Below, one piece after another: positions 4,896-33,782 of a DNA stretch of 64,000 bases; the stretch's first letter is position 1, and each line of letters starts with the position of its first letter. Origin of the DNA: an uncultured Gammaproteobacteria bacterium (GTDB lineage: Bacteria > Patescibacteriota > Microgenomatia > Levybacterales > UBA12049); assembly GCA_964507055.1 (NCBI GenBank), contig CAZDOJ010000001.1, positions 1,170,050 to 1,234,049 of the forward strand. Reading direction: 5' to 3'. The notes beneath the pieces were generated by a model, which was not told the DNA's origin, did no database searches, and saw nothing but the letters and a program-made list of their open reading frames with translations. The translations under genes and the position numbers were made by a program.

Positions 4896-4924
4896 TTGCA
4901 AGCTGGGATGCGGTAGTATATTAT
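4896..4924 (+). promoter_or_regulatory. Sigma70-type promoter TTGCAA-17-TATTAT, 8 nt upstream of the DUF4012 gene ATG (leaderless)
   Basis: ttTTGCAAgctgggatgcggtagtaTATTATtaaagaacATG; no SD. Confidence 0.5.
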
Positions 4925-4932
4925 TAAAGAAC

Positions 4933-7620
4933 ATGGATCAGAATCATCCTAGGGTTACAACAGAGAAGCTCATCCAACTCCCCATCCTCATTATTGATAA
5001 GAAAGGGATGATTGGTGACGCTTTACAAAAAAAACTTCGGGAGCAACTACTTACTGTTTTTGTAACCTCCTCTTCTCTTGATTCTCACGATAACCTTATC
5101 GGAGTGTCGTGGAGAAAGCGGTTGCCTACAGTTCCTGACAATATGTATTCTCATATCTTTGTGGTTTATAACGGAGAAAAAGAGATTCTGGATATGCTTC
5201 CAGGGTTCGTTCAGAAAGCTCGTGAATCAAAAGGAAAAGTTATTTTTATCACTTCCCTCCCCGCGAGCTCCATAAAACTTTTTGCATATCTGCAGCATCA
5301 AGGGTTTCAGGATGTCCAAATTGTTCTTTACGGGGAAACCTTCGGTCCACAAAGTACAGATGTGAATGAAATGAATTTTCTTTTGAATCAGGTAAAAACC
5401 TATGGTCGAATAGAATTAACCAATGCAGGACTCGATACGCTCTACCCTATCTTAATCGAAGATGTTATCCGAGTGATTCAAGCAACAGCATTTGCAAACC
5501 AATACAGTCATAGAATAGTTTTTGCATTCCCCCATCATCCTTTCTCACAAATTTCAATTGCACGCATCCTTCAAAAGCTCGATCCACTATTAAAAACTGA
5601 TTATAAAAAGGGAAAACATGTCGCCCGAGAATACTACATTCCACAAGGTGGCGTGTACTATTTCCAGGATTATGATATTGAAGGCAAATTGCGAACCATT
5701 GATCTTACTCGGACTGGCAGTCGAAATCATGTGCCCCAGAAAAAAGCAAAACTTCACCTTCCAGATCCTGAAGCAAGCCGAAAACGGCTAATCCTTGTTG
5801 GTACCTTACTCAGCTCTTTATTTATTGCACCAATTGTTATTACACTCTTTTTTATGGGCTTAGGTGCAGGATTTCTTACGCTCTCTTTCTCTCAAGCGGA
5901 ACAAGGAAAGTTTGATAGGGCAGAGCAGACTGCTTCAATTGCACAATCATCCTTTCATGCTGCAAATGAACTGCTTCCAGGATTAGTCCTTATTTCAGCA
6001 ATTGCTCCAACCCAGCATGCACAGCTCCAAAATACAGTCACAGTGGGGGAGGAAGTTTCAGAAGCTGAAGGTGAGATTCTCCATGCACTCGTCATAATGA
6101 AAAATATATACGAGAAAAAAAGTCTTGATCCAAAGAATGATTTTTATCGTGCACTGGCGACTGTCAAAAATACTTTAATCACAGTGCAGAAGATGGAGGC
6201 AGAGGAGCAGCTGCCGGTACCAGTACTCGATCTGTTAAAGAAATATAATGGCGTTTTGCAGCTTGTTGAAGGAACTATCGATACTTGGCCCTCTCTCTTA
6301 GGTTTTGAAGGGAAGAGAACATACTTGCTCTTGTTCCAAAATAATATGGAGCTTCGTCCCGGTGGGGGATTCATCGGTTCATATGGCATTGTCACTCTGC
6401 AGAATGGGCAAATGGATAAAATACAAATTAATGATGTCTATGATGCAGATGGACAATTGAAACAAAAGATTGAGCCACCGTATGGTTTAAAACGATACCT
6501 CGGTGCGAGCAATTGGTTTTTGCGAGATAGTAACTTTGATGTTGACTATCCAAGGAATGCTGTCCAAGCAGCACAGTTTCTCAAACTAGAGACAGGACAA
6601 AATGTTGATGGCGTTATCGCAATTGATACGACTTTTCTAAAGGATATTATTGGTGCACTTGGCTCTGTTACCGTTCCTGATTACGAAGAGACCGTAACAG
6701 CGGATACCTTTTATTTGATGACACAAAATCATGCTGAAAAAGATTTCTTTCCAGGATCTCGCCAGAAGAAGGATTTCCTCCGAAGCCTTTCAAATGCATT
6801 AATGATTGAGATCTTTGAGAAAAAGAACTTCTCCTATGAAAAAATGCTTTTGACCATAGAATCTTCAATACGCCAAAAACACTTGCTTATGGCATTCTCA
6901 GATGAAGGAACGCAGACAGTGTTCTCAGTTAATGGACTTTCTTCAACGGTTAAAGATGGTCGAGTAGGGGAGAAAAATACATTTCTTGATTTCTTTGGTG
7001 TTGTCGATGCAAATGTCGGGACAAATAAGTCAAATTATTATTTGAAACGCTCAATGATCCAACAAGTTGCTTTCGATGGTGCTGGTGGGCTTCAAGTGAC
7101 TGCAGAAGTGTCATATGTGAATGCCAGTAAGCAAGGAAGTCTTTATGGAGGAAATTACAATAACTTTGTGAGATTCCTTATTCCGCAAGAAGCGGTATTG
7201 CAAGATATCGCTCTTGATAATGTATCAAGAGAAACAATTCCTGCTATAACGGATTCATCCATATATAGAGATGAAGCTTTTATTCAGCCACGTGGACTAG
7301 AGGTTGAACAAACAGAAGTATTGGGCAAGAAATCAATTGGTTTCTTCTTCATCGTACCTCCTGGACAATCAAAGACCGTAAAACTAACCTATACAATTCC
7401 AGATGCAGTTAACCTAAGAGATTCGTCATTTAAATACAATATGCGATTATTCAAGCAACCTGGAGCAGGGGAAGATCCTTATACATTATATATAACCTAT
7501 CCTAGTGGATTTAAACCAATAGCAGGGGAGAATGCTGCAATGGATTTAGGAGGGAAGCTCGTCTACGATATTAAATTTAATAAGGATACAGACTTAAGTA
7601 TAGGTTTCTCAAAGAGGTAA
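4933..7620 (+). CDS. Membrane-anchored DUF4012 domain protein with an N-terminal degenerate Rossmann-like domain
   Basis: Residues ~470-700 carry the DUF4012 signature ...LLLFQNNMELRPGGGFIGSYG...DADGQL.....PPYGL..YLGASNWFLRDSNFDVDYP... A single TM helix lies at ~aa 300 (LILVGTLLSSLFIAPIVITLFFMGLGAGFL). The N-terminal ~290 aa (ILIIDKKGMIGDALQKKL...VIFITSLPAS...YGETFGP) resemble a degenerate NAD-dependent epimerase fold lacking the Gly motif. Confidence 0.75.
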   Translation: MDQNHPRVTTEKLIQLPILIIDKKGMIGDALQKKLREQLLTVFVTSSSLDSHDNLIGVSWRKRLPTVPDNMYSHIFVVYNGEKEILDMLPGFVQKARESKGKVIFITSLPASSIKLFAYLQHQGFQDVQIVLYGETFGPQSTDVNEMNFLLNQVKTYGRIELTNAGLDTLYPILIEDVIRVIQATAFANQYSHRIVFAFPHHPFSQISIARILQKLDPLLKTDYKKGKHVAREYYIPQGGVYYFQDYDIEGKLRTIDLTRTGSRNHVPQKKAKLHLPDPEASRKRLILVGTLLSSLFIAPIVITLFFMGLGAGFLTLSFSQAEQGKFDRAEQTASIAQSSFHAANELLPGLVLISAIAPTQHAQLQNTVTVGEEVSEAEGEILHALVIMKNIYEKKSLDPKNDFYRALATVKNTLITVQKMEAEEQLPVPVLDLLKKYNGVLQLVEGTIDTWPSLLGFEGKRTYLLLFQNNMELRPGGGFIGSYGIVTLQNGQMDKIQINDVYDADGQLKQKIEPPYGLKRYLGASNWFLRDSNFDVDYPRNAVQAAQFLKLETGQNVDGVIAIDTTFLKDIIGALGSVTVPDYEETVTADTFYLMTQNHAEKDFFPGSRQKKDFLRSLSNALMIEIFEKKNFSYEKMLLTIESSIRQKHLLMAFSDEGTQTVFSVNGLSSTVKDGRVGEKNTFLDFFGVVDANVGTNKSNYYLKRSMIQQVAFDGAGGLQVTAEVSYVNASKQGSLYGGNYNNFVRFLIPQEAVLQDIALDNVSRETIPAITDSSIYRDEAFIQPRGLEVEQTEVLGKKSIGFFFIVPPGQSKTVKLTYTIPDAVNLRDSSFKYNMRLFKQPGAGEDPYTLYITYPSGFKPIAGENAAMDLGGKLVYDIKFNKDTDLSIGFSKR

Positions 7621-7621: not shown

Positions 7622-8788
7622 CTACTTCAATGCTTCAATTCCTGGAAGACTTCCGTTTTCGATAAATTCAAGCATGGCACCCCCGCCTGTAGAAATATGA
7701 GTAATCTTTTCAAGATATTCTTTTTTTGCAAGTGCTGCTAAAGTATCTCCTCCACCAACGACAGAGATAGCATCGTCATTTTGTGTAATTGCGTAATAGA
7801 GAAAATCTGTACCTCTTTTAAATTCTTGATTCTCGATATATCCGACAGGACCGTTCCAGATAATTGTTTTTGCTTCATTAATAATAGCTCCAAAGTCTGC
7901 TTGCGTCTCCGGACCGATATCCAGTGCTAAATCCTTTGCTGCGAGACTTTCAACTTTCTTCACTTCACTTTCTTCGCTATCAAGGTCATCTCCAACGACA
8001 ACATCCTGTGGGATAAGTAATTGTGTTTGTTCTTTCTTAGCATGAGCAAGTAATTTTTTCGCGAGTGCTACATCTTCTGACGAAACAAGACTCTTTCCCG
8101 TTTTTAAGCCATCTGCAGCGAGGAAGGTATTTGCTAAGCCTCCACCAAGGATTACGTAATCAGCAACGCTTGTGAGTTTTTTGATAACTTTGATCTTTGT
8201 TGCAATCTTCTTTCCACCAATAATTGCGACAAATGGCTTTTTGGGATGCTTCATTACTTTATCAAGAATACTCACTTCTTTTTTCATAAGAAGCCCACCA
8301 TAAGAAGGGAGAACTGTTGGCAATCCCACGACAGAAATAGATTTTCTGTGGGATACTCCAAATCCATCATTTACATATGCATCTCCATAAGAAGCTAGTT
8401 GTTTGAGGAATTCAGGATCATTAGCTTTTTCTCCTGGATAGAATCGAATGTTTTCAAGCAGGATGACTTCATGCTCTTTTTGATTCTTTAACTGAGAATC
8501 ATCTTTCTGGAAATCATCTACTAATACTACTTTATAATCTGGGATATATTCACGGAGACGTTTTGCAACCGGAGCAAGTGAGTCTGCTGCATTTCGTTTC
8601 TCTGGATCTCCCAAATGTGCCATGAGGATAAGTTTATTTTTCTTTTTTAGGAGATGTTCAATTGTAGGAATGGATTGTTTAATTCGGACGTCATCGGCAA
8701 TTGATTGATTGGGGTTAAGCGTGACGTTAAAGTCTACTCGGAGAAGAATTGTCTTATTAGTTAAATCGACTTCGTCAATATACTTCAT
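7622..8788 (-). CDS. pgk: Phosphoglycerate kinase
   Basis: Full-length PGK: ...ILLRVDFNV...; ...YVNDGFGVSHR...; ...GGGAMLEF... Convergent with the DUF4012 gene, 1-nt gap. Confidence 0.95.
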   Translation of the reverse strand: MKYIDEVDLTNKTILLRVDFNVTLNPNQSIADDVRIKQSIPTIEHLLKKKNKLILMAHLGDPEKRNAADSLAPVAKRLREYIPDYKVVLVDDFQKDDSQLKNQKEHEVILLENIRFYPGEKANDPEFLKQLASYGDAYVNDGFGVSHRKSISVVGLPTVLPSYGGLLMKKEVSILDKVMKHPKKPFVAIIGGKKIATKIKVIKKLTSVADYVILGGGLANTFLAADGLKTGKSLVSSEDVALAKKLLAHAKKEQTQLLIPQDVVVGDDLDSEESEVKKVESLAAKDLALDIGPETQADFGAIINEAKTIIWNGPVGYIENQEFKRGTDFLYYAITQNDDAISVVGGGDTLAALAKKEYLEKITHISTGGGAMLEFIENGSLPGIEALK

Positions 8789-8839
8789 AGAATCTCATCT
8801 ACAGTATAACACTATTTGATAGTTTGCAAGTCCTTGGAT

Positions 8840-8868
8840 TTGCTAAATTAAGATAAAATCTATACAAT
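8840..8868 (+). promoter_or_regulatory. Promoter TTGCTA-17-TACAAT, 6 nt upstream of the ATG at 8875 (leaderless)
   Basis: tTTGCTAaattaagataaaatctaTACAATacacccATG. pgk on the opposite strand has TGtTATACT 14 nt from its ATG. This is a back-to-back divergent promoter region. Confidence 0.5.
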
Positions 8869-8874
8869 ACACCC

Positions 8875-10182
8875 ATGAACGCATCAGTTCTTGAAGCTTC
8901 ATATCCAATTGCATTTCAGCAAAAGGAAGCCGAAAAGCTAGGTGAATACCTACGGCAGCGTCAGTCTGTCAATTTTATCGGTATGAAACGCGTAGGAATA
9001 AGTAATTTCCTTCGTTTTTTCCTCAATCACACTGATATTATTCCAACCTACATTAGTAAAAAAGAACAACATCTTTTTATCCCAGTTGATTTAAATGATC
9101 TTGTGGAGCAAGAGATTTATCCTTTCTGGACATTAACACTTAAGCGTATCGTTGATGTCTCTGGGCAATCAGATCTTTCACCGGAAGTGAAAGAGAAAAT
9201 TAATGAGCTTTTTTTGAAAAGTATTCAATTCCAAGACTTATTTCTCGTCATTGAAAATATTCGTCACGCGTTGGTGCTCATAGGTGAAAGTGGCATGTAT
9301 CCAACGATCTTCTTTCTCAGATTTGATCGACTTAAGGATAAATTTAATTCATCATTTTTTGATAACTTGCAAGGACTTCGAGATGCGACAAATGATAATT
9401 TGACATATGTTTTTACAAGTTATCGAAGTTTGGTAAGTATTTTCCCAGGAGCAAGGGCAAACCTCTCAGTATTTGCTCAAACGATGTTTGCAAAACCCGC
9501 AAGTGATAGCGATATGCGGATTGTTTATGATGCATATAAACAGCGTTATAAGCTTGCACTTCAGCCTCCAGTAGAACAAGCTTTTTTTGAAGCAATTGGT
9601 GGTTATATGCAATACCTGCAACTAGGATTAATTCACCTTAATGAGGTGCAAAGAAAGAAGCTTCAAACCAAAGAAGATATCATGCATACACTTCTTTCGG
9701 ATGAACGGATTATGTTGCAGTCTGAAGAATTATGGGAAAGTCTGTTCCTTGAAGAACAAAAAGTCCTAACGCAAATTGTGAAAAAGCAATCAATTAGTGA
9801 AGACGATCGTGAGAAGGGCAAATATCTTTGGGAGACAGGATTTGTTTTTGAAGAAAGGGGAGGGCTTCGTGCTTTTAGTCCATTGTTTGAAGCATTTATC
9901 TCCCAGCTCGAAGAAGAAGAAAGTAAAAAGAAGAAGACAGCCCACCTCACAAAGAAAGAGCATTTACTCTTTACTTTACTGAAAGAGCAAATGGGGGAGA
10001 TCGTGGAACGAGAAAGTATTGTTGAAGTCGTTTGGCCAGAATCACAAGAATTCGGTGTCTCAGACTGGGCAATTGATCGGTTAGTTGCTCGAGTTCGTCT
10101 AAAGCTTCGAGATCAAGATACTCGCTATGAAATCCAAACAATCCGTACAAGAGGATATAAATTGACTCCACTTAAAGATTAA
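8875..10182 (+). CDS. Transcriptional regulator: N-terminal degenerate P-loop NTPase-like domain + C-terminal OmpR/PhoB-type winged helix
   Basis: C-terminus ...LTKKEHLLFTLLKEQMGEIVERESIVEVVWPES...VSDWAIDRLVARVRLKLRD...IQTIRTRGYKL is a trans_reg_C winged helix. The N-terminus ...SVNFIGMKRVGISNFLRFF... sits where a Walker A would be, but the Lys is replaced (GxxxxGIS). Confidence 0.7.
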   Translation: MNASVLEASYPIAFQQKEAEKLGEYLRQRQSVNFIGMKRVGISNFLRFFLNHTDIIPTYISKKEQHLFIPVDLNDLVEQEIYPFWTLTLKRIVDVSGQSDLSPEVKEKINELFLKSIQFQDLFLVIENIRHALVLIGESGMYPTIFFLRFDRLKDKFNSSFFDNLQGLRDATNDNLTYVFTSYRSLVSIFPGARANLSVFAQTMFAKPASDSDMRIVYDAYKQRYKLALQPPVEQAFFEAIGGYMQYLQLGLIHLNEVQRKKLQTKEDIMHTLLSDERIMLQSEELWESLFLEEQKVLTQIVKKQSISEDDREKGKYLWETGFVFEERGGLRAFSPLFEAFISQLEEEESKKKKTAHLTKKEHLLFTLLKEQMGEIVERESIVEVVWPESQEFGVSDWAIDRLVARVRLKLRDQDTRYEIQTIRTRGYKLTPLKD

Positions 10183-10206: not shown

Positions 10207-10215
10207 TGTTATAAT
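10207..10215 (+). promoter_or_regulatory. Extended -10 TGtTATAAT, 7 nt upstream of the valS ATG (leaderless)
   Basis: ccgTGtTATAATtagcctcATGgac. Confidence 0.5.
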
Positions 10216-10222
10216 TAGCCTC

Positions 10223-12382
10223 ATGGACAAGGCATACAATCATAAAGATAACGAAGAAAAGCTCTACGAACATTGGGAGAAAAAAGGGTACTTTCAGCCT
10301 GATATCAATCCTAAAGGTGAGCCCTATTCAATAGTTCTTCCTCCACCAAATGTAACAGGAACACTGCACAATGGACATGCTCTTATGCTTGTTATTCAGG
10401 ATATTCTGATCAGATACCATCGTATGAAAGGTTTCCAAACATTATGGCTTCCCGGAACTGATCATGCTGCAATAGCTACTCAATCAAAGGTTGAAAGTAT
10501 CATGTATAAAAAAGAAGGTAAAACTCGTCATGATCTTGGTCGGGAAGCTTTCTTGAAGAAAGTTGAAGCATTTGCTCAAGATAGTCACGATACAATCGTT
10601 AATCAGATAAAGCGAATGGGTGCATCCATCGATTGGACTCGTGAAGCGTACACCTTGGATAAAGATCGTAATCTTGCGGTTCGGACTGCATTTAAACAAA
10701 TGTATGATGACGACATCATCTATCGAGGCGAAACAATTGTTAACTGGGATCCGTATCTTCAGACGACAGTTTCAGATGATGAAATCGAATGGAAAGATCA
10801 ACAAACACCTTTTTACTATTTCCAATATGGACCTTTTGTTATTGCTACGGCTCGTCCTGAAACAAAGTTTGGGGACAAATATGTTGTTATGCATCCGGAT
10901 GACAAGCGGTATAAGCAATACGAGCATGGTCAAAAGATTGAAGTGGAATGGATTAATGGCAAGATTATTGCCACGATCTTAAAAGATAAAGCAATCGATA
11001 TGAAATTTGGAACAGGTGTCATGACTATTACTCCTTGGCATGATAAGACTGATTATGAGATTGCACAACGTCATAATCTTGATATTGAGCAAGTAATCGA
11101 CTTCAAAGGACTACTCCTTCCAATAGCCGGCGAGTTTGCTGGCATGCACATTAAGAAAGCTCGTCCTCAGTTGGTTAAGAAGCTAAAAGAGAAAGGCTTA
11201 GTAGTGAAGATTGAAGAGAATTACACCAACAGAATTGCTACAAACTATCGAGGTGGGGGAGTAATCGAGCCGCAAATTAAGAAGCAATGGATGGTTAATG
11301 TTAATAAGGAGTTTATCTTGAAGCATTCAGAAATTGAGGGCATAAAATCAGGCTCAAATGTTACTCTAAAGAAGTTAATGAAGCATGCTGTCGAAAGTGG
11401 TCAAACGACAATTACACCGTCACATTTTAAAAAGATTTATTATCATTGGATTGATAATCTTCGTGATTGGTGTATCTCTCGACAAATTTGGTACGGACAT
11501 CGAATTCCTGTTTGGTATAAGGGAGAAGAACTTTATTGTGGTATTGAGGCTCCAGAAGGTGATGGTTGGGAACAAGATTCAGATACGTTGGATACTTGGT
11601 TCTCAAGCGGTTTATGGACCTTCTCAACACTTGGTTGGCCTAACAAAACAGAAGATCTGAAAAAGTTTCATCCCACAAATGTTCTGGAAACCGGTTATGA
11701 TATTCTGTTTTTCTGGGTTGCAAGAATGATTTTAATGAGCACATATCTGACAGGGCAGATACCGTTTAAACAAGTTTTGCTTCATGGCCTAGTTCGGGAT
11801 GCCGATAAACAGAAAATGAGTAAGTCTAAAGGGAATGTCATCGATCCTCTCGATTGGTCTGACAAATATGGTACAGATGCCCTTCGTATAGCCCTTATTT
11901 ACTCTACAGCCGCTGGGAATGATATCCCTATGGCAGAAGAGAGAGTTCGAGGTATGAAGTTCTTTGCAAACAAACTTTGGAATATGGGGAGATTTATCGA
12001 GATGAACAAACCAGAAGGATACAATGGAAAATTAGAGGATTCTTTTGCAACACTGGAGCGACTTGCAAAGGATGGTACTGACAAGTCGTGGGTAAAAAAA
12101 GTGGAAAAGCTTTCGAATGAAACGGCAAAGAATATTGAAGCATTCAGGCTACACGAGGCAGCTCAAGAACTATACCAATTTACATGGCATGAATTTGCAG
12201 ATAAGTATATTGAGGATGTTAAAACAAGAGTGGATGATAACTCCTATACTACTCTTATTTCTCTCTATGCTATTCAGCTTCGATTGCTTCATCCGTTCAT
12301 GCCATTTGTTACTGAAGCAATCTATCAGCAAATGCCTGGACATGGCGAATCGATAATGATTGAGCCTTATCCAACTGCGTAA
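10223..12382 (+). CDS. valS: Valine--tRNA ligase (short form, 719 aa)
   Basis: HIGH-region PPPNVTGTLHNGHAL, KMSKS motif KMSKSKGNVIDP, editing-domain and anticodon-binding regions. Lacks the long C-terminal coiled-coil extension of typical ~880-950 aa ValRS. Confidence 0.9.
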   Translation: MDKAYNHKDNEEKLYEHWEKKGYFQPDINPKGEPYSIVLPPPNVTGTLHNGHALMLVIQDILIRYHRMKGFQTLWLPGTDHAAIATQSKVESIMYKKEGKTRHDLGREAFLKKVEAFAQDSHDTIVNQIKRMGASIDWTREAYTLDKDRNLAVRTAFKQMYDDDIIYRGETIVNWDPYLQTTVSDDEIEWKDQQTPFYYFQYGPFVIATARPETKFGDKYVVMHPDDKRYKQYEHGQKIEVEWINGKIIATILKDKAIDMKFGTGVMTITPWHDKTDYEIAQRHNLDIEQVIDFKGLLLPIAGEFAGMHIKKARPQLVKKLKEKGLVVKIEENYTNRIATNYRGGGVIEPQIKKQWMVNVNKEFILKHSEIEGIKSGSNVTLKKLMKHAVESGQTTITPSHFKKIYYHWIDNLRDWCISRQIWYGHRIPVWYKGEELYCGIEAPEGDGWEQDSDTLDTWFSSGLWTFSTLGWPNKTEDLKKFHPTNVLETGYDILFFWVARMILMSTYLTGQIPFKQVLLHGLVRDADKQKMSKSKGNVIDPLDWSDKYGTDALRIALIYSTAAGNDIPMAEERVRGMKFFANKLWNMGRFIEMNKPEGYNGKLEDSFATLERLAKDGTDKSWVKKVEKLSNETAKNIEAFRLHEAAQELYQFTWHEFADKYIEDVKTRVDDNSYTTLISLYAIQLRLLHPFMPFVTEAIYQQMPGHGESIMIEPYPTA

Positions 12383-12857: not shown

Positions 12858-13565
12858 TTATTCTTTCTTCTCTTCAGCATCTGCTGCACCTTCTTCAGAT
12901 GCTTTTTCTTCATTTGATTCGCCTTCTTTAGTTTCTCCTTCTTCACCTTCAGCTGTTTCTCCCTCAGCACCTTCTTCTCCTTCTGCAGGCTCTTCAGGTT
13001 CTGGCTCTTCTACAACCAATTCATTAACTCTTGCAATTGTTTGTGTAGAGTCGGTGAGAATTGTAATTTCATCTGAAACTTTAAGATCAGCCACAGTTAC
13101 TTGATCTCCGATTGCTGCAAGATGTTCTACACTAACTTCAACATTCTCTGGAAGCTTGTCTGGAAGTGCTTCGACTTCAACTTCATTAAGATTTTGGAGA
13201 AGAAGACCAACCTTATCAGTAACAGCTTGTGCTTCTCCAATTAATAGAACAGGAACGACAGCCTTAACTTTAACTTTCAAATTAACTTGGTAGAAATCTA
13301 CATGAAGAGGCTCATTTATTGCATAATTCTTATGCATACTTTTTACTAAAACTGGCTTTGTTTTTCCATCAAAAGTAAGATCAATAAGTCCTGTATCACC
13401 AGCTTCTTTATATACCTTTTGGAAATCAGAGAGGGCTACTTGGATGGATTTTGATTCGAGACCTTTGCCGTAAACATTTGCAGGAAGAATCCCTTCTCGG
13501 CGGAGCTTTTTAACCTTTTTTCCTAATACTGTTCTTGATTCAGCACTAAGCTGTGGGTGTTTCAT
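12858..13565 (-). CDS. rplY: 50S ribosomal protein L25 / general stress protein Ctc, with an acidic Glu/Ala/Gly-rich C-terminal tail
   Basis: N-terminus ...RTVLGKKVKKLRREGILPANVYGKG...; the C-terminal ~50 aa are EPEPEEPAEGEEGAEGETAEGEEGETKEGESNEEKASEEGAADAEEKKE. Confidence 0.9.
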   Translation of the reverse strand: MKHPQLSAESRTVLGKKVKKLRREGILPANVYGKGLESKSIQVALSDFQKVYKEAGDTGLIDLTFDGKTKPVLVKSMHKNYAINEPLHVDFYQVNLKVKVKAVVPVLLIGEAQAVTDKVGLLLQNLNEVEVEALPDKLPENVEVSVEHLAAIGDQVTVADLKVSDEITILTDSTQTIARVNELVVEEPEPEEPAEGEEGAEGETAEGEEGETKEGESNEEKASEEGAADAEEKKE

Positions 13566-13678
13566 ATTAGTTATTCTATACTAACTTGTATGGATATACA
13601 AGAGCAGAAAGAGTGTATCAAATATCATCAGCACTGTCAAACTATGGGGTCGTTTGGGTACTGTATAATAGAGTAAAT

Positions 13679-14164
13679 ATGCGCGTTTTAGGTATAGATC
13701 CAGGAATTGGCAGAATGGGATGGGGAATTGTTGAAATACAAAGTGGTAAGGTGAAAGCAATTGATTATGGATGCATTGAAACTCCTAAAGAACATGCATT
13801 AGAACAAAGAATTGAAACCCTTTACAGTACACTTATAAAGATAATTCAAGCACATCAACCTGAAGCTTTGGCGATAGAATCATTATTTTTTAATAAAAAT
13901 GTTACAACAGCAATTGCTGTAGGGCAAGCAAGAGGAATTGTGCTCCTTGCGGCTGCACAAAATAAAATGAGTGTAACTTCATACACGCCTCAGCAAGTGA
14001 AATCCGGAATTACAGGGTATGGAAAGGCTGACAAGCTTCAAGTCGGGAATATGATTAAGATGGTCTTACATTTACAGAGCATACCCAAACCTGATGATAC
14101 AGCTGACGCATTGGCTATAGCTGTGACGCATGCTTTCTCTTATAAGTTGAAGGTTCGAGATTAG
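13679..14164 (+). CDS. ruvC: Crossover junction endodeoxyribonuclease RuvC
   Basis: MRVLGIDPGIGRMGWGIVE... with catalytic acidic residues. ATG 13679 lies 9 nt after TGTATAAT (13662-13669). The listed ORF 13586 start is an upstream extension. Confidence 0.9.
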   Translation: MRVLGIDPGIGRMGWGIVEIQSGKVKAIDYGCIETPKEHALEQRIETLYSTLIKIIQAHQPEALAIESLFFNKNVTTAIAVGQARGIVLLAAAQNKMSVTSYTPQQVKSGITGYGKADKLQVGNMIKMVLHLQSIPKPDDTADALAIAVTHAFSYKLKVRD

Positions 14165-15063
14165 TTAAAAAGCGAAGCGAAGAACTCCATTAATAATCGA
14201 AAAAAGCTTAACAATAATTCTATAAATCCGCCTTGATCACCGCCACCACCTGGATTCTCACTATCATCTATTGGGGAAGGTTCTCTAGATGGATTTGTTC
14301 CAATATCATCGATCGGCGTAATTTCAGGTGCATTAGTAACTGAGATTGAACCGGTTGGTATTGCTGAAACGGTAGGAATAGCTGTTGGGCATGACCCAAG
14401 ACATTCAGGGCTTGGTACTGGTTGTGTCGGATTTACGGTTGGTGAAACTTCTTGACTAATAGTAGGTTGAGGTTGAGCCCCATTATCATCTTCTGCAAAA
14501 TCCTGAACCCAATAGTTCCCTGTCCGTGCGATTCCTGTATAGAGATATTTAGGATCAAGCAGATTCACATTATGACTTGGGGAGGCTTTCCATTGATTAA
14601 ATATAGTGGTGGCATCACTAACTGTATTTGTTGCAATATTTTCTGCACCATAAGGTGCCCCACATTCTGCGGCTCTTTGATTTGGTGTTCTGTCTCGAGA
14701 ATCTTTATGATCAAGGTAATTTTTTGTGGACATGTCTTTACTCATCCATGCTGCCATTCTGTTGAGGTTCTCTGAAGATGAAAGTGCTGGGACATTATTT
14801 TCCTGCCTGTATGCATTAATAAGATCCAGCATCATGCGTTCTTCGTTATCAACTAATTGATCTGAGGCTGCAACTTCACAATTTGTAACTTGTGCTCGTG
14901 TTCTATGATCTTGATTTTTTTGCGTTTCATTAATAGCCACAAAGAGGATAAGCAAAAGGAGGATTAATGTTGAAAATACAATAACTGGATATTTCCTATA
15001 CCACGGTATTTTCTTTTCAGCGTGTTTCTTAACAAGTTTCTTTTTCGTTTTTGTAGTAGCCAT
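14161..15063 (-). CDS. CAP (SCP/PR-1-like) domain protein, membrane-anchored, with a Pro/Thr-rich linker
   Basis: N-terminal TM helix; CAP domain ...LINAYRQENNVPALSSSENLNRMAAWMSKDM...WKASPSHNVNLLDPKYLYTGIA...; then PTISQEVSPTVNPTQPVPSP... Inserted between ruvC and ruvAB on the opposite strand. Confidence 0.75.
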   Translation of the reverse strand: MATTKTKKKLVKKHAEKKIPWYRKYPVIVFSTLILLLLILFVAINETQKNQDHRTRAQVTNCEVAASDQLVDNEERMMLDLINAYRQENNVPALSSSENLNRMAAWMSKDMSTKNYLDHKDSRDRTPNQRAAECGAPYGAENIATNTVSDATTIFNQWKASPSHNVNLLDPKYLYTGIARTGNYWVQDFAEDDNGAQPQPTISQEVSPTVNPTQPVPSPECLGSCPTAIPTVSAIPTGSISVTNAPEITPIDDIGTNPSREPSPIDDSENPGGGGDQGGFIELLLSFFRLLMEFFASLFN

Positions 15064-15138
15064 AGTTCTATTATGTAGAGATTCTCTACACGTTGTAAAC
15101 AGGTAATTGTCTGTTATAATCTGGGTACTTTACTGCCT

Positions 15139-24972: not shown

Positions 24973-25096
24973 CCCTTTAGAGGATTGGAACAAGAGCTTG
25001 TAAATAGATTTAAAAAGGAGTATTCTAATGGTGCGTCTCAAGGAAAATTGAGAGCTAAAAGCCTCTAACCAAACCAGACGGGTCGATAGGCCTAGT

Positions 25097-25124
25097 TTGC
25101 ATGCTTGCGTGAATGTGCTACAAT
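25097..25124 (+). promoter_or_regulatory. Promoter TTGCAT-16-TGcTACAAT, 7 nt upstream of the rpoD ATG (leaderless)
   Basis: gtTTGCATgcttgcgtgaatgTGcTACAATatacactATGtcc. Confidence 0.55.
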
Positions 25125-25131
25125 ATACACT

Positions 25132-26214
25132 ATGTCCCTGAAATTGTCACCACTACTAACTGATGTTGTTACTTCTGCAAAGAAGCGCGGTTATATCACC
25201 CAAGACGAAATCTTAGGTATTTACTCCAAACCAGAAGATCATATTGAAGACCTTGATGCACTATATGACAAACTCATGCGATCAAATATTGACGTATTTG
25301 AGTCAGTTGCACAACAGCAAGATAATCAAAAACCAATTGAGGATCTTGAAAAAGAGCTTGAAGCTTTGACTGTTCTAACAGAAGGTTCAGTCAGTGATCC
25401 TGTCAGAATGTACCTCAAAGAAATTGGTAGAATTCCACTTCTTAATTTTGATGAAGAAATTGAACTCGCAAAAAGAGTTGAAAATGGTGATGGTCGTGCA
25501 AAACAAAAACTTATTAATTCCAACCTTCGTTTGGTAGTTTCTATCGCAAAAAAGTATATTGGTCGAGGTTTGTCTCTTTTGGATCTTATTCAAGAAGGTA
25601 ACCAAGGACTTATTCGTGCAGTTGAAAAGTACGATTGGAGACGTGGATTTAAGTTTTCAACATATGCGACATGGTGGATTCGCCAATCTGTAACTCGTGC
25701 TATTGCTGATCAAGCTCGTACAATCCGTATTCCTGTACATATGGTTGAAAATATTAACCGTTTCTTGCGTTCCCAAAGAAGACTTATGCAGGAATTAGGT
25801 CGTGAACCTACTCCTGAAGAAGTTGCAGCGGTACTTGGTATTGAACCAGATAAAGCACTTGAAATCATCAAAATCTCACAGAATCCAGCATCTTTGGAAG
25901 CTCCAGTTGGAGATGAAGAAGATTCCCGACTTGGAGACTTTATTCATGACGTATCAGCTCCAACACTTTTTGATAGTGCATCTCGCGAACTTTTGAAAGA
26001 GCAAGTCGATCAAGTACTTGGCACACTTTCAGATCGTGAAAGAAGAGTATTAAAGGAACGATTTGGCTTGGATGATGGTCGACCAAAGACACTTGAAGAA
26101 GTTGGTCGTATGTTCCAAGTGACACGTGAGCGTATCCGTCAAATTGAAGCAAAAGCACTTCGAAAGCTTCGACACCCATCACGAGGGAATAAGCTTCGAG
26201 ATTACCTCGTTTAA
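25132..26214 (+). CDS. rpoD: RNA polymerase sigma factor, group 1 (RpoD/SigA-like), short form lacking region 1.1
   Basis: Regions 1.2-4.2: ...[16 protein letters not shown]...; ...[43 protein letters not shown]...; ...[30 protein letters not shown]... The listed ORF start 25105 is a TTG extension. Confidence 0.9.
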
Positions 26215-26215: not shown

Positions 26216-26446
26216 CTATCTACTAATTTGTGGGCCACGATTTGGCCTAGTATCTCCTCGAGTTAATGTTACCGGTATCATATTTACTCTGTCATTCACT
26301 CTGCGAGGAGCAGCATTTGTTTGTAATCCTTTTAATGCACGCAAAACTGCTAGCTGCTGCATAGCTTCTATATACGATAAATTCTGATCCAGATATTGTA
26401 ATCTTTTTACTTCAGGGGGTATGCCCCAAATAATTCTTTCAGCCAT
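26216..26446 (-). CDS. Hypothetical small protein
   Basis: The ORF fills an otherwise 355-nt gap. Its ATG (26446..26444) lies 6 nt after a TATTAT box on the minus strand, matching the local leaderless pattern. No recognisable domain. Confidence 0.3.
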   Translation of the reverse strand: MAERIIWGIPPEVKRLQYLDQNLSYIEAMQQLAVLRALKGLQTNAAPRRVNDRVNMIPVTLTRGDTRPNRGPQISR

Positions 26447-26569
26447 ACACACATAATACTATAGGTTTATATTCTTGTCAAGTTTTCAGAATGTTTACTC
26501 TGTAAATATCTCGTTTAATTTTCTCATTGAAATTGTACGGTGAGTATGGTTATATAGAGCTGACAGACA

Positions 26570-28117: not shown

Positions 28118-28155
28118 TACGCTCTTTTTACAAAATTTACTTTATAATATAGTAA

Positions 28156-28686
28156 ATGGATAAAAAAAGTGCTGCACAGGTTGTTAAGTCACCTGTATTT
28201 AAACTTATAGCCTCAGTGTTCGGTATAATCTTTTTGATTCTGACATTCTTCATTACTCTCGCTCCGGATACGTTTAGTGGCTATGGTTATTTAGGAATAT
28301 TTCTTTTTAATATTTTTAATACAAGTATTCTTATCATGCCGATTCTTCTCGAACGCTTTGATCTTTGGGGAATTGTATTCTTTTCGGCATTGGGCAACAT
28401 TCCCAATACGAGTGTTAACTATTTAGTAGGGGATACCAGTAAAAGACTGTTTCCTCATAACTCAGTCATAACATTGCTTAAAAAATGGATGCACAAAAAA
28501 TATGGTTTAATTGTTGTCTACCTCATTGCAATTATTCCATTACCTATTGATATTAATGGTTTGCTTGCTGGGTATGTAGGAATTCCTTTTAAATGGTATA
28601 TTTTGGTCAACTTTTTGGGTAGAGCTACTTCATTTTTGTTAGCGGGTTTGGGCGTCTGGACCTTTGCTCAAGCAATGGGTTGGTAA
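28156..28686 (+). CDS. VTT-domain (DedA/YqaA-like) small membrane protein
   Basis: 4-5 TM helices; ...IIPLPIDINGLLAGYVGIPFKWYILVNFLGRAT... resembles the VTT/SNARE-associated domain. ATG 7 nt after TATAAT (tttTATAATatagtaaATG). Confidence 0.5.
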   Translation: MDKKSAAQVVKSPVFKLIASVFGIIFLILTFFITLAPDTFSGYGYLGIFLFNIFNTSILIMPILLERFDLWGIVFFSALGNIPNTSVNYLVGDTSKRLFPHNSVITLLKKWMHKKYGLIVVYLIAIIPLPIDINGLLAGYVGIPFKWYILVNFLGRATSFLLAGLGVWTFAQAMGW

Positions 28687-29714: not shown

Positions 29715-29876
29715 AGACTGGCACAAAGAACATCAAAAGCAGTGTTATTGCCGTCCCTTACCTGCTAATCTCCAACAAAAATAGCTTCAGAATAATATAG
29801 TAGGACTCTTCCTCAAAATTTACATTTATACGGTAATCTCGAACTATAATAAAGTATGTATCTTATTAAGGATTGA

Positions 29877-29886
29877 CTTAATTAAG
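29877..29886. promoter_or_regulatory. Perfect 10-bp palindrome CTTAATTAAG ~25 nt upstream of arsR (candidate ArsR operator)
   Basis: Read directly; self-complementary; overlaps the predicted arsR promoter region. Confidence 0.3.
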
Positions 29887-29910
29887 TAAAAGCTTTAAAA
29901 TAGATTTGTT

Positions 29911-30231
29911 ATGGATATGTATGCAGCCTTAGCTGAACCAACACGAAGAAACATTTTGGAGCTGTTAGCAAATAGTGGACAAATGACAGCAACTGAAATT
30001 AGTAATAAATTTGATGTGAGTGCACCTGCAATTTCTCAACATCTTAAAGTTCTCAAAGAAGCAAAACTTGTAGATATGGAGAAGCGTGCACAACAACGTA
30101 TTTACACCATAAATCCTGAGCCAATGCTTGAAATGGGAGGTTGGTTGGAGAAGCTCGCGAAAGTTTGGGAAGAACGATACAACAGACTAGAAACTTTATT
30201 AGCACGAGAAAAAAGGAAGGAGGTGAAATAG
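29911..30231 (+). CDS. ArsR/SmtB family transcriptional regulator
   Basis: ...LAEPTRRNILELLANSGQMTATEISNKFDVSAPAISQHLKVLKEAKLV... wHTH of ArsR family. Confidence 0.85.
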   Translation: MDMYAALAEPTRRNILELLANSGQMTATEISNKFDVSAPAISQHLKVLKEAKLVDMEKRAQQRIYTINPEPMLEMGGWLEKLAKVWEERYNRLETLLAREKRKEVK

Positions 30232-30232
30232 T

Positions 30233-30751
30233 ATGGCACAAAAAATTCAATTAGCTTTGTGGTTTGATAAGGAATGTGAAGAGGCTATAAACTTATACGT
30301 CGACACATTCAATAATCGTCCACATGCAACAGGTAAAACATCCAGAATTGTCAGTATCAAGAGATATCCTGAAGGCATGGATGAGGAGCACATGAAAGGT
30401 ATGGACGGAAAGGTCCTGACTGCGTTCTTTGAACTCGAGGGACAGACTTTTCAAGCTCTTGATGGTGGACCGTTATTTAAATTTAACGAATCACTTTCAC
30501 TTTCAGTAGATTGTGAAGATCAGGAGGAAGTTGATTACTTCTGGAATAAGCTTACAGCCGATGGTGGTGAAGAATCGCAATGTGGTTGGTTGAAAGATAA
30601 ATTCGGTCTTTCATGGCAGATTGTCCCAAGACGATTGGGCGAGTTGCTCGAAGATCCAGATCGAGAAAAGTCAGATCGAGCTTTGAAAGCAATGCTGCAG
30701 ATGCAGAAGATTGATGTTCAAAAGCTTGAAGATGCTTTTAACGGTAAATAG
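30233..30751 (+). CDS. VOC family protein (PhnB-like)
   Basis: ...LWFDKECEEAINLYVDTF...DGGP.FKFNES.S....C.......W..L.....ESQCGWLKDKFGLSWQIVP... Strong SD GGAGGTG 7 nt upstream. Confidence 0.7.
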   Translation: MAQKIQLALWFDKECEEAINLYVDTFNNRPHATGKTSRIVSIKRYPEGMDEEHMKGMDGKVLTAFFELEGQTFQALDGGPLFKFNESLSLSVDCEDQEEVDYFWNKLTADGGEESQCGWLKDKFGLSWQIVPRRLGELLEDPDREKSDRALKAMLQMQKIDVQKLEDAFNGK

Positions 30752-30796
30752 TCCTCATTGTAGGATTAAATATAAAAAGAAAGGAGGTGGAAATTT

Positions 30797-31285
30797 ATGT
30801 CAAGAAATAACTTACAAGTAGATAAAGAAAATAAAATAACAATAATGGAACGCGTATTCAGTGCTTCTCGAGACCTTATTTGGAAGGCACATACTGATCC
30901 TGAGCTGATGAGGCAATGGTGGGGGGCAAATGAATACGAAGTTATCATTGAAAAAATGGATATTCGAGAAGGCGGAGAGTGGAGAATGGTTCATAAAGGG
31001 AAAGATGAACAAGGTAATCCAGTTGAGTATGCTTTCTATGGTGAATATAAAGAAATTAAAGAACCAGAATCTATCACATGGACATTCAATTTCGAACCAA
31101 TGGGCCCTGGCCATGAAATAACTGAAACATTCTATCTCGAAGAAGTTGAAGATGGGAAAACAAAGATTCGAACAGTTTCTCATTACAAATCTGATGAAGA
31201 TCTCGAAGGAATGATTCAATCCGGTATGGAGGATGGAGCAGTTGAGACTTGGGATCGACTTGAAGAACTTACAGCAAAGATGTAA
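30797..31285 (+). CDS. SRPBCC family protein (AHSA1 / activator-of-Hsp90-ATPase-like domain)
   Basis: ...ITIMERVFSASRDLIWKAHTDPELMRQWWG...; typical of ArsR-linked SRPBCC proteins. Strong SD AAGGAGGTGG 6 nt upstream. Confidence 0.7.
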   Translation: MSRNNLQVDKENKITIMERVFSASRDLIWKAHTDPELMRQWWGANEYEVIIEKMDIREGGEWRMVHKGKDEQGNPVEYAFYGEYKEIKEPESITWTFNFEPMGPGHEITETFYLEEVEDGKTKIRTVSHYKSDEDLEGMIQSGMEDGAVETWDRLEELTAKM

Positions 31286-31345
31286 TATATCTGTCCCTCT
31301 TCCTCAATGGAGGAGGGACATCTTTGTTTGAGAAAGGAGGTATAT

Positions 31346-31621
31346 ATGTGTCGCAATATTAAAACACTTTTTAATTTTGATCCACCAGCAACAAAAGAAG
31401 AAATAGATGCAGCTTCATTACAGTTTGTTCGCAAGCTTTCAGGATTCAATCATCCTTCAAAAGTAAATGAGGAAGCATTTAATATTGCAGTTGATGAAGT
31501 TTCGGTTATTGCAAGTAAACTATTGAAAGCTCTTGTAACAAATGCAGAACCAAAAGATAGGGAAGTTGAAGCCGAAAAAGCTCATGAAAGAGCTGTTAAA
31601 CGATTTGGTTTGCAGGAATAA
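31346..31621 (+). CDS. DUF2277 family protein
   Basis: MCRNIKTLFNFDPPATKEEIDAASLQFVRKLSGF... matches the DUF2277 N-terminal signature. ATG 31346 is preceded by SD AAGGAGG; the listed ORF start 31307 is upstream of this SD. Confidence 0.7.
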   Translation: MCRNIKTLFNFDPPATKEEIDAASLQFVRKLSGFNHPSKVNEEAFNIAVDEVSVIASKLLKALVTNAEPKDREVEAEKAHERAVKRFGLQE

Positions 31622-32239
31622 TCACTTCTTTCTTTTGTGCCAGAAAAACCAGACAACAAAAATTGCGAGTAAGATGAATACGCCGTATTCAAATAACTTC
31701 GTATATCGTTGTACTTCCTGCCATTTCTCTCCCAATGTCCAACCGATACTAATTAATAATCCGTTCCATACAGCACTACCAATACCTGTATAAAGAATAA
31801 ACTTTCTTAGGGGCATTTTGGTAATTCCTGCGGGGATGGATACAACGCTGCGAAGCGTTGGGATAACGCGTCCAAATAAAACAAGCTTTGCACCATGTTT
31901 ATCAAACCATGATATTCCCTTTACAACATCATCTTTACCAATACCCAGCCATTTCCCATACTTCGTTGCAGCAGATAAAACTCGTTTCTCTCCTAATTTA
32001 CAGCTAAGATAGTAAAGGAAAAGTGCTCCAAGAATAGAACCAAGTGTTGCAGCTAAAAGAGTAGCAGGGAACCAAAGCTTGCCTTGGTTAACCAGAAACC
32101 CCGTCAGTGGAAGTATGACTTCAGAAGGAATAGGTGCAAATATGCTTTCAAGAGCAATTAAAAGTATGATTCCAATGTAACCAGTTGTTTCGATAAATGA
32201 TGTCACAAAACCAATTACATCGGTGAATATAAAGTTCAT
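31622..32239 (-). CDS. DedA family membrane protein
   Basis: ...YIGIILLIALESIFAPIPSEVILPLTGFLVNQGKL...; ...LVLFGRVIPTLRSVVSIPAGITKMPLRKF... ATG 6 nt after TATAAT on the minus strand. Confidence 0.85.
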   Translation of the reverse strand: MNFIFTDVIGFVTSFIETTGYIGIILLIALESIFAPIPSEVILPLTGFLVNQGKLWFPATLLAATLGSILGALFLYYLSCKLGEKRVLSAATKYGKWLGIGKDDVVKGISWFDKHGAKLVLFGRVIPTLRSVVSIPAGITKMPLRKFILYTGIGSAVWNGLLISIGWTLGEKWQEVQRYTKLFEYGVFILLAIFVVWFFWHKRKK

Positions 32240-32321
32240 TTTGTCATTATATAGTATCTAACCATGAGCTTTGTAGGAATGGTGTAATGTCATATTATTT
32301 GCTGTACACTATAGATAGTCT

Positions 32322-33782
32322 ATGGAAGTTGTACGTTCTGCGATTCTCTTTTTCGGTTGGCCTGTTCTCATTGCTGGAAGCATTTTTCTTTATGTGCAAA
32401 CGTACAGATTTTATAATGACGTGCAAAAAAATGTTTGGGGTAAACTAGTCCTCGCAATGGTTGCTGGATGGCTTTTGACTATGTACAGTCTTGGCATCGT
32501 TTCAACAGCGTTTATGATGGTTAACCTTCGTGAAGGTGTGATGTTTGTATTACCGATATTTGGATTATGGTTTGTGACGATGATCATGGTTGTCAGAACA
32601 GTTCTTATCTGGAATAAAGAAGCAGTCAATCTTAATAAGTTTAATTCTCAATTAAAAACGCTTGTCGAGGAACGAACGCAAGAGTTAGAGGATGAAAAGA
32701 ATATTTTGGAAGGGGAGCGGAAAAAACTACGATTGGTTATCGCAGGAATTAAAGATGGTGTGTTGGCAATTGATTTGAATAAAAATATTGTCATGGGTAA
32801 CGATGCTATTGCTCAGATGTCTGGATATTATATTGATGAACTTGTGGGTAAACCACTTTTTGAAGTCTTTAAGTTATTTGAAAAGAATGATCCAATAAAT
32901 CAGGAAGAGGTTCTCCCACCATTCAAAAAAGGCTATGAAGGCGTTCTGTCTCATAAAACCCAAGTTGCTCTTTTAGGTAACAATACAGAGCGTTTTGTCG
33001 AAATTACCGTGAGCCAAATACGCGAAGGTATGCTATTAAATGTTGGTTATATCATTCTATTCCACGACATTACTGAGCAGGTAAATCTGGATAAAATGAA
33101 ATTGGATTTCGTATCTATGGCCGCACATGAACTTCGTACACCTTTGACATCAATCAACTCATATTTGTCTGTATTAAATGATAAGAAGATCCCTTTGACA
33201 CCAGATGAACAAGCGACATACTTACAGCGAATCAGTGCTGCAAGTAATAATTTACGTGATCACGTAGAAAACCTCCTTAACATTACAAAGATTGAGCGGA
33301 AGACTATGCGATTAAGTCCTAAATCTCTTAATTGGGTTGAATCTGTCAAAGGTTTTATAACGCCTTTGTTGGATGCAGCAAAGCAAAAAGATATCACGGT
33401 CACTGTCCAAGAACCGCAAGCATTTATTCCCAATGTCTATGCTGACCCGTTACTTACGGAAGAAATTATTAGTAATTTGGTACAAAATGCAATCAACTTT
33501 TCTCCAGCTGGTGCAACCGTCGATATAACCTTCGAGGTAAAGGATGGCTATGTTGTAACGCATATTACTGACACTGGTGAAGGAATCCCTCTTGATGCAA
33601 TTCCACATCTTTTTACAAAGTTCTTTAGAGTTGAAGGAACACTTGAGCAGGGAAGTAAAGGAACAGGTTTGGGGTTGTATATTTCAAAGGCAATTACTGA
33701 AATGCACAAAGGACAAATATGGGTTGAGTCACAGGAAAAGAAAGGTTCAACATTTTCATTTACTTTACCAATATTTAAATAA
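32322..33782 (+). CDS. Sensor histidine kinase (2 TM + PAS-like + HisKA + HATPase_c)
   Basis: H-box MAAHELRTPLTSINSYLSVL; N/G boxes ...NLVQNAINFSP...; ...GTGLGLYISKAITEMHKGQIWVESQ... No response regulator adjacent. Confidence 0.9.
   Translation: MEVVRSAILFFGWPVLIAGSIFLYVQTYRFYNDVQKNVWGKLVLAMVAGWLLTMYSLGIVSTAFMMVNLREGVMFVLPIFGLWFVTMIMVVRTVLIWNKEAVNLNKFNSQLKTLVEERTQELEDEKNILEGERKKLRLVIAGIKDGVLAIDLNKNIVMGNDAIAQMSGYYIDELVGKPLFEVFKLFEKNDPINQEEVLPPFKKGYEGVLSHKTQVALLGNNTERFVEITVSQIREGMLLNVGYIILFHDITEQVNLDKMKLDFVSMAAHELRTPLTSINSYLSVLNDKKIPLTPDEQATYLQRISAASNNLRDHVENLLNITKIERKTMRLSPKSLNWVESVKGFITPLLDAAKQKDITVTVQEPQAFIPNVYADPLLTEEIISNLVQNAINFSPAGATVDITFEVKDGYVVTHITDTGEGIPLDAIPHLFTKFFRVEGTLEQGSKGTGLGLYISKAITEMHKGQIWVESQEKKGSTFSFTLPIFK

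Follow-up and report, generated by a model that had tools for sequence, protein, structure and literature searches.

Which signal sets the start of translation in a genome where many genes carry a promoter-like hexamer, and no Shine-Dalgarno (SD) sequence, immediately upstream of the start codon? The question is raised by a 64,000-nucleotide (nt) stretch of contig CAZDOJ010000001.1, herein referred to as the window, which starts at the dnaA/rpmH origin region and has a GC content of 38-40%. A preliminary description of this DNA noted -10 boxes 6-9 nt before the start codons of many genes that stand first in their operons, and proposed leaderless translation as the dominant initiation mode. Leaderless initiation is well known in mycobacteria and Deinococcus. 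The analysis presented here supports this proposal at the sequence level: the first genes of most transcription units are probably leaderless, being transcribed from sigma-70 promoters set at the start codon, and the trait is probably shared across Candidatus Levybacteria.

The RpoD encoded in the window (25132-26214) has a 100% identical counterpart on OZ246394.1, a chromosome of 1.61 Mb whose record is titled "uncultured Gammaproteobacteria." The next 79 best RpoD loci, with 74-96% identity, are labeled overwhelmingly as Candidatus Levybacteria/Levyibacteriota or Patescibacteria. Because the nearest RpoD loci carry these labels, the window is assigned to a chromosome of Candidatus Levybacteria (Candidate Phyla Radiation (CPR)/Patescibacteria, Microgenomates), and the Gammaproteobacteria label of the record appears to be a mislabel. 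The same apparent mislabel was found on many related records of metagenome-assembled genomes. The 79 related loci, comprising ~1.3 Mb, were used as the sample of relatives; extrapolation to the whole genome is based on the 64 kb of the window and on this sample. Open reading frames (ORFs) of 100 amino acids (aa) or more were called mechanically in the relatives, each from its first ATG, and the 592 ORFs whose upstream neighbor is divergent or distant were taken as first-in-operon. Such calling dilutes the signal but does not create it. The breadth covered is that of Levybacteria: a search for RuvC homologues gave only matches with at least 58% identity, and the two that were located both lie in regions syntenic with the window.

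All 12 arrangements of -10 box, spacer (the distance in nt from hexamer to start codon), and start codon cited in the preliminary description are literally present in the sequence, and none of these 12 starts has an SD 4-mer 3-12 nt upstream. Pfam agrees with all of the cited gene names (L34, DUF4012, Trans_reg_C, class-I tRNA synthetase, RuvC, DnaG, sigma-70, VTT/DedA, histidine kinase, beta-lactamase family, and ComM-type Mg-chelatase). The example of the histidine kinase stands only in part. Its TATAGA-6-ATG is in place, but TATAGA was rejected as a convincing -10 box: the near-invariant last T is missing, and TACACT is found 11 nt upstream instead. About nine further starts of the leaderless type were found beyond those cited, belonging to the genes for GNAT, RplY, CAP, DUF2207, a P-type ATPase, a 76-aa ORF, ArsR, an IS1595-like protein, and possibly a SET-domain protein. 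At none of the ~20 leaderless-type starts in the window was an SD 4-mer found 3-12 nt upstream.

Such boxes could be a chance product of AT-rich intergenic DNA combined with starts picked to suit the motif. At the GC content of this DNA, TANNNT is found at 2-4% per position in intergenic sequence, and a few starts (SET, 36697; comM, 22881) were indeed chosen with the motif in view. The position of the hexamer was compared with shuffled and control sequences, using 32 first-in-operon starts of the window picked on gene layout alone. TANNNT at spacer 6-9 was found at 17 of the 32 starts, compared to 5.2±2.1 after shuffling of each upstream region with its composition preserved, and none of 5000 shuffles reached 17. 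For the strict motif, the corresponding counts were 13 and 1.5. In these 32 upstream sequences, the TANNNT counts at other 4-nt spacer windows were 2-11. On both strands of the window, TANAAT-N6-9-ATG occurs 25 times, and in 12 of these cases the ATG is the first one in a long ORF (45 such ORFs; odds ratio 65, p = 2e-15). When identical regular expressions were applied to 45 curated window starts and to 70 annotated genes of Escherichia coli K-12, TANNNT at spacer 6-9 was found in 42 and 3%, respectively.

The relatives gave the same picture. Among their 592 first-in-operon ORFs, TANNNT at spacer 5-10 was found in 48%, vs. ~18% in windows farther upstream, and the strict motif TANAMT in 31%, vs. 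~3% in control windows. The signal is alike across close, intermediate, and distant relatives (40, 40, and 47%, vs. 8-13% in controls). Shuffles and control windows of the same sequences thus exclude chance for the positional peak, which persists both with first-ATG starts and with starts from an independent gene caller. Moreover, the starts are backed by Pfam and by the N-termini of orthologues, and the box is kept in relatives down to 74% RpoD identity. We regard the chance explanation as scarcely credible.

SD sequences are rare. An SD 4-mer precedes 4 of the 45 curated window starts (9%), compared to 49 of the 70 E. coli K-12 genes (70%) under the same regular expression. In the relatives, an SD 5-mer was found before 3.9% of first-in-operon starts and 6.3% of internal starts, and in only 6% of same-strand adjacent genes even if any candidate start was allowed. 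SD usage like that of typical bacteria, which the preliminary description had named as a finding that would speak against leaderless starts, was not seen. The motif comparison that it had suggested for the whole genome, applied here to the window and the ~1.3 Mb of relatives, showed the hexamer enriched at starts and SD rare.

The hexamer might still act in translation, as a non-SD ribosome-binding or translation-enhancer element on leadered mRNAs whose promoters lie farther upstream (GeneMarkS-2 group B, Bacteroidetes type). Since SD is nearly absent not only before first but also before internal genes, there must be some recognition independent of SD; in addition, internal genes have a minor peak of TANNNT (12%) at spacer 6 as well as A-rich positions -4 to -2. 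The sequence context of the hexamer argues for a promoter instead. When the relatives were aligned on the hexamer, 60% of the sequences had T at -3 and 50% had G at -2, corresponding to a TGn extended -10 element; TTG at -23 to -21 (53, 47, and 37%) corresponds to a -35 element with a 17-nt spacer. The TG extension accompanies 42% of start-proximal hexamers but only 6.2% of all 53,975 TANNNT in the loci, and the -35 TTG accompanies 31 vs. 7.2%; a ribosome-binding site would need no such context. The hexamer has the consensus TAtaaT with A2 and T6 of the invariant type, and it is approximately twice as common before first genes as before internal ones (48 vs. 26%). No second promoter-like peak, as expected if promoters lay farther upstream, was found at spacers 20-50 in the relatives. 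In an independent two-hexamer scan of the window, the best matches were located 6-9 nt before rpmH, the CAP gene, the 76-aa ORF, the IS1595 and SET genes, arsR, comM, rpoD, dnaG, the winged helix-turn-helix (wHTH) gene, and the DUF4012 gene. The window itself encodes an RpoD with regions 1.1-4, according to Pfam. Because of the TGn extension, the -35 TTG at 17 nt, and the scan matches at gene starts, the start-proximal hexamer is best read as a sigma-70 promoter and not as a ribosome-binding site, and a role in ribosome binding appears very improbable.

If the hexamer is a promoter, its spacing predicts where transcription begins. Across 49 bacteria, transcription start sites (TSSs) are centered 7 bp downstream of the -10 element (PMC12641261), and by this distance a 6-nt spacer puts +1 on the A of the ATG. 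Strict-motif spacers in the relatives have their mode at 6 (77 hits, compared to 19-36 at each of 7-9), with a shoulder at 8-9 and a tail to ~13. An alternative is that the promoters are real but the TSSs lie a few nt upstream, giving SD-less leaders of 1-8 nt, so that the mRNAs are not strictly leaderless. The spacers are continuous from 6 to ~14 nt, as this alternative would have it, with 9 nt for ruvC, arsR, and the serine hydrolase, 10 for the Wzy-TPR gene, 12 for the TPR gene, and 14 for pgk; ruvA, the gene for a 1015-aa protein, and the aminotransferase gene follow at 17-27 nt. The mode at 6, with +1 on the A, stands against it. Besides, 5' untranslated regions of up to 5 nt are counted as leaderless (PMC6028130; PMC3160421), which makes this alternative mostly a sub-case and not another mechanism. 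As an account of the starts in general we consider it unlikely, and sigma-70 promoters set at the start codon itself remain the preferred reading.

The arrangement is conserved. Orthologues were anchored on the aligned first residue and counted over distinct sequences, with a box expected in ~17%. TANNNT at spacer 5-10 is kept in 93% of rplY orthologues (13/14), 80% of ruvC (12/15), 74% of comM (26/35), 73% of the ATPase gene (8/11), 63% of dnaG (45/71, with TGn in 35), and 55% of rpoD. In these alignments the intergenic flanks around the conserved boxes have diverged, and SD 4-mers are nearly absent. On two syntenic contigs, the same boxes were found at starts called by the database's own independent pipeline.

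Conservation also bears on the practical rule offered in the preliminary description, according to which the box can be used to correct start codons. Where this can be checked against Pfam or the N-termini of orthologues, the rule holds: it selects ATG 13679 for ruvC, ATG 25132 for rpoD, and GTG 22881 for comM, and comM orthologues have ATG at the position aligned to this GTG. In RuvC, RuvA, PGK, L34, L25, and DnaG, the match to the Pfam profile sets in at residues 1-6; for example, positions 1-148 of the RuvC profile align to residues 3-151, and positions 1-61 of RuvA_N to residues 1-62. RuvC homologues are mostly 158-161 aa long, and ~1 in 5 is called longer. For DUF2277, both the Pfam profile and a strong SD indicate a start at ATG 31346 and not at 31307.

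With spacers of 6-9 nt as the measure, ~20 of the 45-46 window genes (~42%) and 17-20 of the 32-34 transcription units (~55-60%) are of the leaderless type. Approximately seven genes have spacers of 10-14 nt and hence leaders of a few nt (dnaA, the histidine kinase gene, Wzy-TPR, the gene for a carboxypeptidase-regulatory-domain protein, TPR, pgk, and Gmad2), and three or four genes, including ruvA and those for the 1015-aa protein and the aminotransferase, have SD-less leaders of 11-20 nt. Leaderless initiation may thus be called dominant for first cistrons, as the preliminary description had it, but not for all genes; across all genes it is a plurality beside SD-independent internal initiation.

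Two of these upstream regions have additional features. Upstream of dnaA (minus strand, 352-392), a perfect DnaA box TTATCCACA (plus-strand positions 373-381) lies between TTGACA (387-392) and the -10 region, which is ~11 nt upstream of ATG 352; the arrangement resembles classical dnaA autoregulation, acting at a promoter with a short leader. Upstream of rplY (minus strand, 13612-13640), a second promoter-like site, TTGACA-17-TACACT (10/12, with TG before the hexamer), was found 46 nt from the ATG, and rplY may also have a leadered transcript.

Genes inside operons follow other rules. A strong SD was found before only three window genes (starts 30233, 30797, and 31346), all of them downstream genes of one operon (plus strand, 29911-31621). 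This operon consists of arsR, a gene of the 3-dmu-9_3-mt family, AHSA1, and DUF2277, and its first gene, arsR, has a leaderless-type start. Position within the operon may be enough to explain why the SD sequences cluster here, or the genes may have been acquired recently. In some relatives the homologue of the gene at 30233 has a leaderless start (TGtTAGAAT-7-ATG), in another it is SD-led, and rpoD is SD-led in some relatives (e.g., locus L015); this variation corresponds to the interchange of modes described by Zheng et al. (PMC3160421). Between AHSA1 (end at 31285) and DUF2277 (31346), a hairpin of 12 bp, 7 of them GC, followed by a T-tract, is located at 31292-31320 on the plus strand. Its 3' arm holds GGAGGAGGG, and a terminator or attenuator is possible at this site in the only SD-using operon.

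Any SD was found for 6-15% of internal genes. In the other internal genes of the window (rnpA, yidD, yidC, jag, ruvB, NUDIX, and hydrolase 2), SD is missing and the start adjoins or overlaps the preceding stop codon. The 4-nt ATGA overlap is the commonest same-strand junction in the Levybacteria loci L001-L084 (48 of 386 pairs). Because of this overlap, and with SD found in only ~6%, termination-reinitiation is suggested as the main route for downstream cistrons. GGAGG sequences before starts in the relatives are preferentially flanked as A-GGAGG-TG. Since these flanks complement CACCUCCU, and AGGAGGTG sites are properly spaced on the three internal genes, the anti-SD is probably intact, with the canonical CACCUCCU tail. 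Reduced anti-SD detection has been reported only for a subgroup of Parcubacteria (PMC9297842).

In the proposed mechanism, promoters recognized by RpoD (sigma-70), mostly with an extended -10 element TGnTAnAAT and often with a TTGnnn -35 element at 17 nt, would direct RNA polymerase to begin at the first base of the start codon (A or G) or a few nt from it. Most transcription units would then have their first gene on a leaderless mRNA. As in mycobacteria, Deinococcus, and lambda cI, the 5'-terminal AUG of this mRNA would be bound directly by the ribosome and initiator tRNA, with no SD pairing. Downstream operon genes cannot be leaderless; a few would use AGGAGGTG, and most would be translated via translational coupling or reinitiation.

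Several observations weigh against this mechanism. The coincidence of TSS and start codon is inferred from the -10 spacing alone, and spacers of 9-14 nt (ruvC, arsR, the hydrolase gene, TPR, pgk, and others) could mean leaders of 1-7 nt. A pyrimidine at -1, expected for TSS selection, is weakly enriched (75 vs. 63%, p = 0.005), and we do not rely on it. The smaller peak at spacer 6 before internal genes of the relatives blurs the contrast between first and internal genes; we attribute it to putative internal extended -10 promoters, because the hexamers there carry TG but no -35. A loose two-hexamer sigma-70 scan of the window gave 58 sites in total, compared to 55-58 in shuffled sequence. The evidence is therefore positional and not one of abundance, and only the top matches and their positions are informative. 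Finally, the 3' end of 16S rRNA was not found in the window or in the 80 loci searched, and the anti-SD was read indirectly, from the flanks of SD sequences. With these points taken into account, we still consider leaderless first genes, transcribed from sigma-70 promoters at the start codon, the probable arrangement. The starts are listed in Table 1.

Table 1. Gene starts in the window with their upstream elements (hexamer-spacer-start; positions refer to the window).
Gene	Positions	Strand	Upstream arrangement	Start	Remarks
rpmH	487..525	+	TTGTCA-17-TGgTATACT-7-ATG	523	Pfam L34 profile from residue 3
GNAT gene	3811..3828	+	TGtTATAAT-6-ATG	3826	Promoter within 3' end of preceding gene
DUF4012 gene	4896..4935	+	TTGCAA-17-TATTAT-8-ATG	4933	
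pgk	8786..8811	-	TGtTATACT-14-ATG		Leader ~7 nt, no SD; Pfam PGK profile from residue 4
wHTH (Trans_reg_C) regulator	8840..8877	+	TTGCTA-17-TACAAT-6-ATG	8875	Same box in related loci L081 and L084
valS	10207..10225	+	TGtTATAAT-7-ATG	10223	Kept in L081 (GTG start) and L084
rplY (L25)	13563..13581	-	TAGAAT-7-ATG	13565	TANNNT at spacer 5-10 in 13/14 orthologues
ruvC	13661..13681	+	TATAAT-9-ATG	13679	Not TTG 13586
CAP-domain protein	15061..15099	-	TTTACA-18-CATAAT-6-ATG	15063	
ruvA	15093..15141	+	TTGTAA-16-TGtTATAAT-18-ATG		Leader ~11 nt, no SD
DUF2207 protein	16745..16763	+	TGaTAAAAT-7-ATG	16761	Internal promoter 13 nt past ruvB; TGaTAGAAT-7-ATG in L084
P-type ATPase	21307..21326	-	TAAACT-8-ATG	21309	Box in 8/11 orthologues
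comM	22879..22917	-	TTGTCA-17-TATTAT-7-GTG	22881	Not TTG 22917
dnaG	23195..23214	+	TGtTACAAT-8-ATG	23212	
rpoD	25096..25134	+	TTTGCA-17-TGcTACAAT-7-ATG	25132	Not TTG 25105
76-aa ORF	26444..26481	-	TTGACA-17-TATTAT-6-ATG	26446	Top promoter match of the window (11/12)
VTT-domain protein	28140..28158	+	TATAAT-7-ATG	28156	
arsR-type regulator	29873..29913	+	TTGACT-17-TAAAAT-9-ATG	29911	First gene of operon
3-dmu-9_3-mt family gene	30210..30235	+	SD AGGAGGTG 6-9 nt before ATG	30233	Operon-internal
AHSA1 gene	30775..30799	+	SD AGGAGGTG before ATG	30797	Operon-internal
DUF2277	31330..31348	+	SD AAGGAGGT before ATG	31346	True start; Pfam profile begins at this Met
dedA	32237..32254	-	TATAAT-6-ATG	32239	
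Histidine kinase	32307..32324	+	TATAGA-6-ATG	32322	Weak case
Aminotransferase class V	33789..33827	+	TGcTATAAT-27-ATG		Leader ~20 nt, no SD
SET-domain protein	36695..36734	-	TTGCCA-18-TACAAT-7-ATG	36697	Alternative candidate start
IS1595-type Zn-ribbon protein	37373..37411	-	TTGACA-18-TAATAT-6-ATG	37375	
1015-aa protein	43669..43697	-	TGtTATAAT-17-ATG		Short SD-less leader
Beta-lactamase-family serine hydrolase 1	46581..46601	+	TATAAT-9-ATG	46599	Not TTG 46581

Other features of the window were also observed. The ORFs for the SET-domain protein and the IS1595-type zinc-ribbon protein (transposase N-terminal) adjoin on the minus strand (35966-37375). Positions 4351-4932 form ~580 nt with only short ORFs, none of them convincing, which is unusually long non-coding DNA for a compact genome; a 90-aa ORF in this region, overlapping the GNAT gene, has no significant Pfam match. 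On the minus strand, 48683-64000 is taken up by a giant ORF (more than 5,100 aa), which runs past the window end, its start lying outside. Its product is repetitive, rich in G, T, A, and N, and probably a surface or adhesin-like protein; no Pfam family was found in it above threshold. The Rfam scan of the window identified one tRNA (tRNA-Asn) only, and no leader RNAs, riboswitches, or other families. The intergenic regions shared by divergent gene pairs in the window are only 75-130 nt long.

The results have consequences for annotation and for experiment. In these genomes, starts will be placed too far upstream by gene callers that favor SD motifs or the longest ORF, as for ruvC, rpoD, and comM, and a -10-box rule or modeling of the GeneMarkS-2 type would mend such starts. 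Genetic systems for Patescibacteria, now in development, would need expression cassettes of the leaderless type and not SD-based ones. With these findings, the Terrabacteria rich in leaderless genes (Actinobacteria and Deinococcus-Thermus) are joined by a CPR lineage whose ribosomes are reduced, a point that bears on arguments about the ancestral initiation mode and genome streamlining. A wider reading is offered tentatively, as a possibility that we do not favor at present: Levybacteria, possibly together with other Microgenomates/CPR, would have an almost SD-free initiation regime, in which a canonical anti-SD is kept, more than half of the transcription units are leaderless, and downstream cistrons are started by coupling or reinitiation independent of SD. 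If this were true, the leaderless share of a reduced-ribosome lineage would equal or exceed the highest so far known in Bacteria, and start codons in CPR metagenome annotations from SD-based callers would contain systematic errors.

The leaderless architecture itself is already known, and what is new here is the lineage, a CPR one (Levybacteria). The top results of a full-text literature search combining "leaderless" with CPR lineage names included none that links leaderless starts to CPR, the mentions in the CPR papers examined being incidental. The architecture was defined as that of TA-led genes (Zheng et al., 2011; PMC3160421) and as group C of GeneMarkS-2 (PMC6028130). As in Levybacteria, the leaderless genes of Actinobacteria and Deinococcus-Thermus (Mycobacterium tuberculosis, M. 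smegmatis, Streptomyces, and Deinococcus deserti) have TANNNT 6-8 nt upstream of first genes, no SD on those genes, and ATG or GTG at the 5' end (PMC6028130; PMC3160421), and their orthologues switch between leaderless and SD-led starts. Leaderless genes account for ~19% of genes in Actinobacteria and 36-46% in Deinococcus-Thermus, with 167 of 262 genes in D. deserti; the share in the window (~42% of genes and ~55-60% of units) is similar to the highest bacterial values reported. Levybacteria differ from the group C phyla in two respects. First, their box is a full TGnTAtaaT with a -35, as the lineage is low-GC, whereas high-GC phyla have a bare TAnnnT. Second, their internal genes rarely have SD (~6-15%), whereas group C is described with ribosome-binding sites on internal genes. 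In addition, the Levybacteria case, unlike those of Actinobacteria and Deinococcus-Thermus, is known from sequence alone.

The pattern of group A, SD before most starts, contrasts with the 4 of 45 starts in the window and the 4-6% in relatives, and that of group B, the same motif before first and internal genes with no promoter features, was not found. The non-SD initiation of Bacteroidetes and Cyanobacteria (group B) and the anti-SD loss of some Parcubacteria (PMC9297842) resemble the present case in very low SD use and, for the latter, in the CPR context with reduced ribosomes; the motif here, however, appears to be a promoter and not an A-rich ribosome-binding site, and the anti-SD is apparently retained. 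The leaderless mRNAs of Archaea (Haloferax and Sulfolobus; group D) and of lambda cI likewise have a 5'-terminal AUG without SD and are restricted to first cistrons, but Archaea have a TATA/BRE box ~26 nt upstream, in contrast to the bacterial -10 and -35 elements found here. These elements are most like the extended -10 (TGn) sigma-70 promoters of E. coli, Gram-positive bacteria, and other Terrabacteria, which also consist of TGnTATAAT with an optional TTGACA at 17 nt and which dispense with a -35 and depend on TGn when they lie inside the coding sequence of a preceding gene. The window promoters differ from those of E. coli in their placement, by which +1 would be the start codon.

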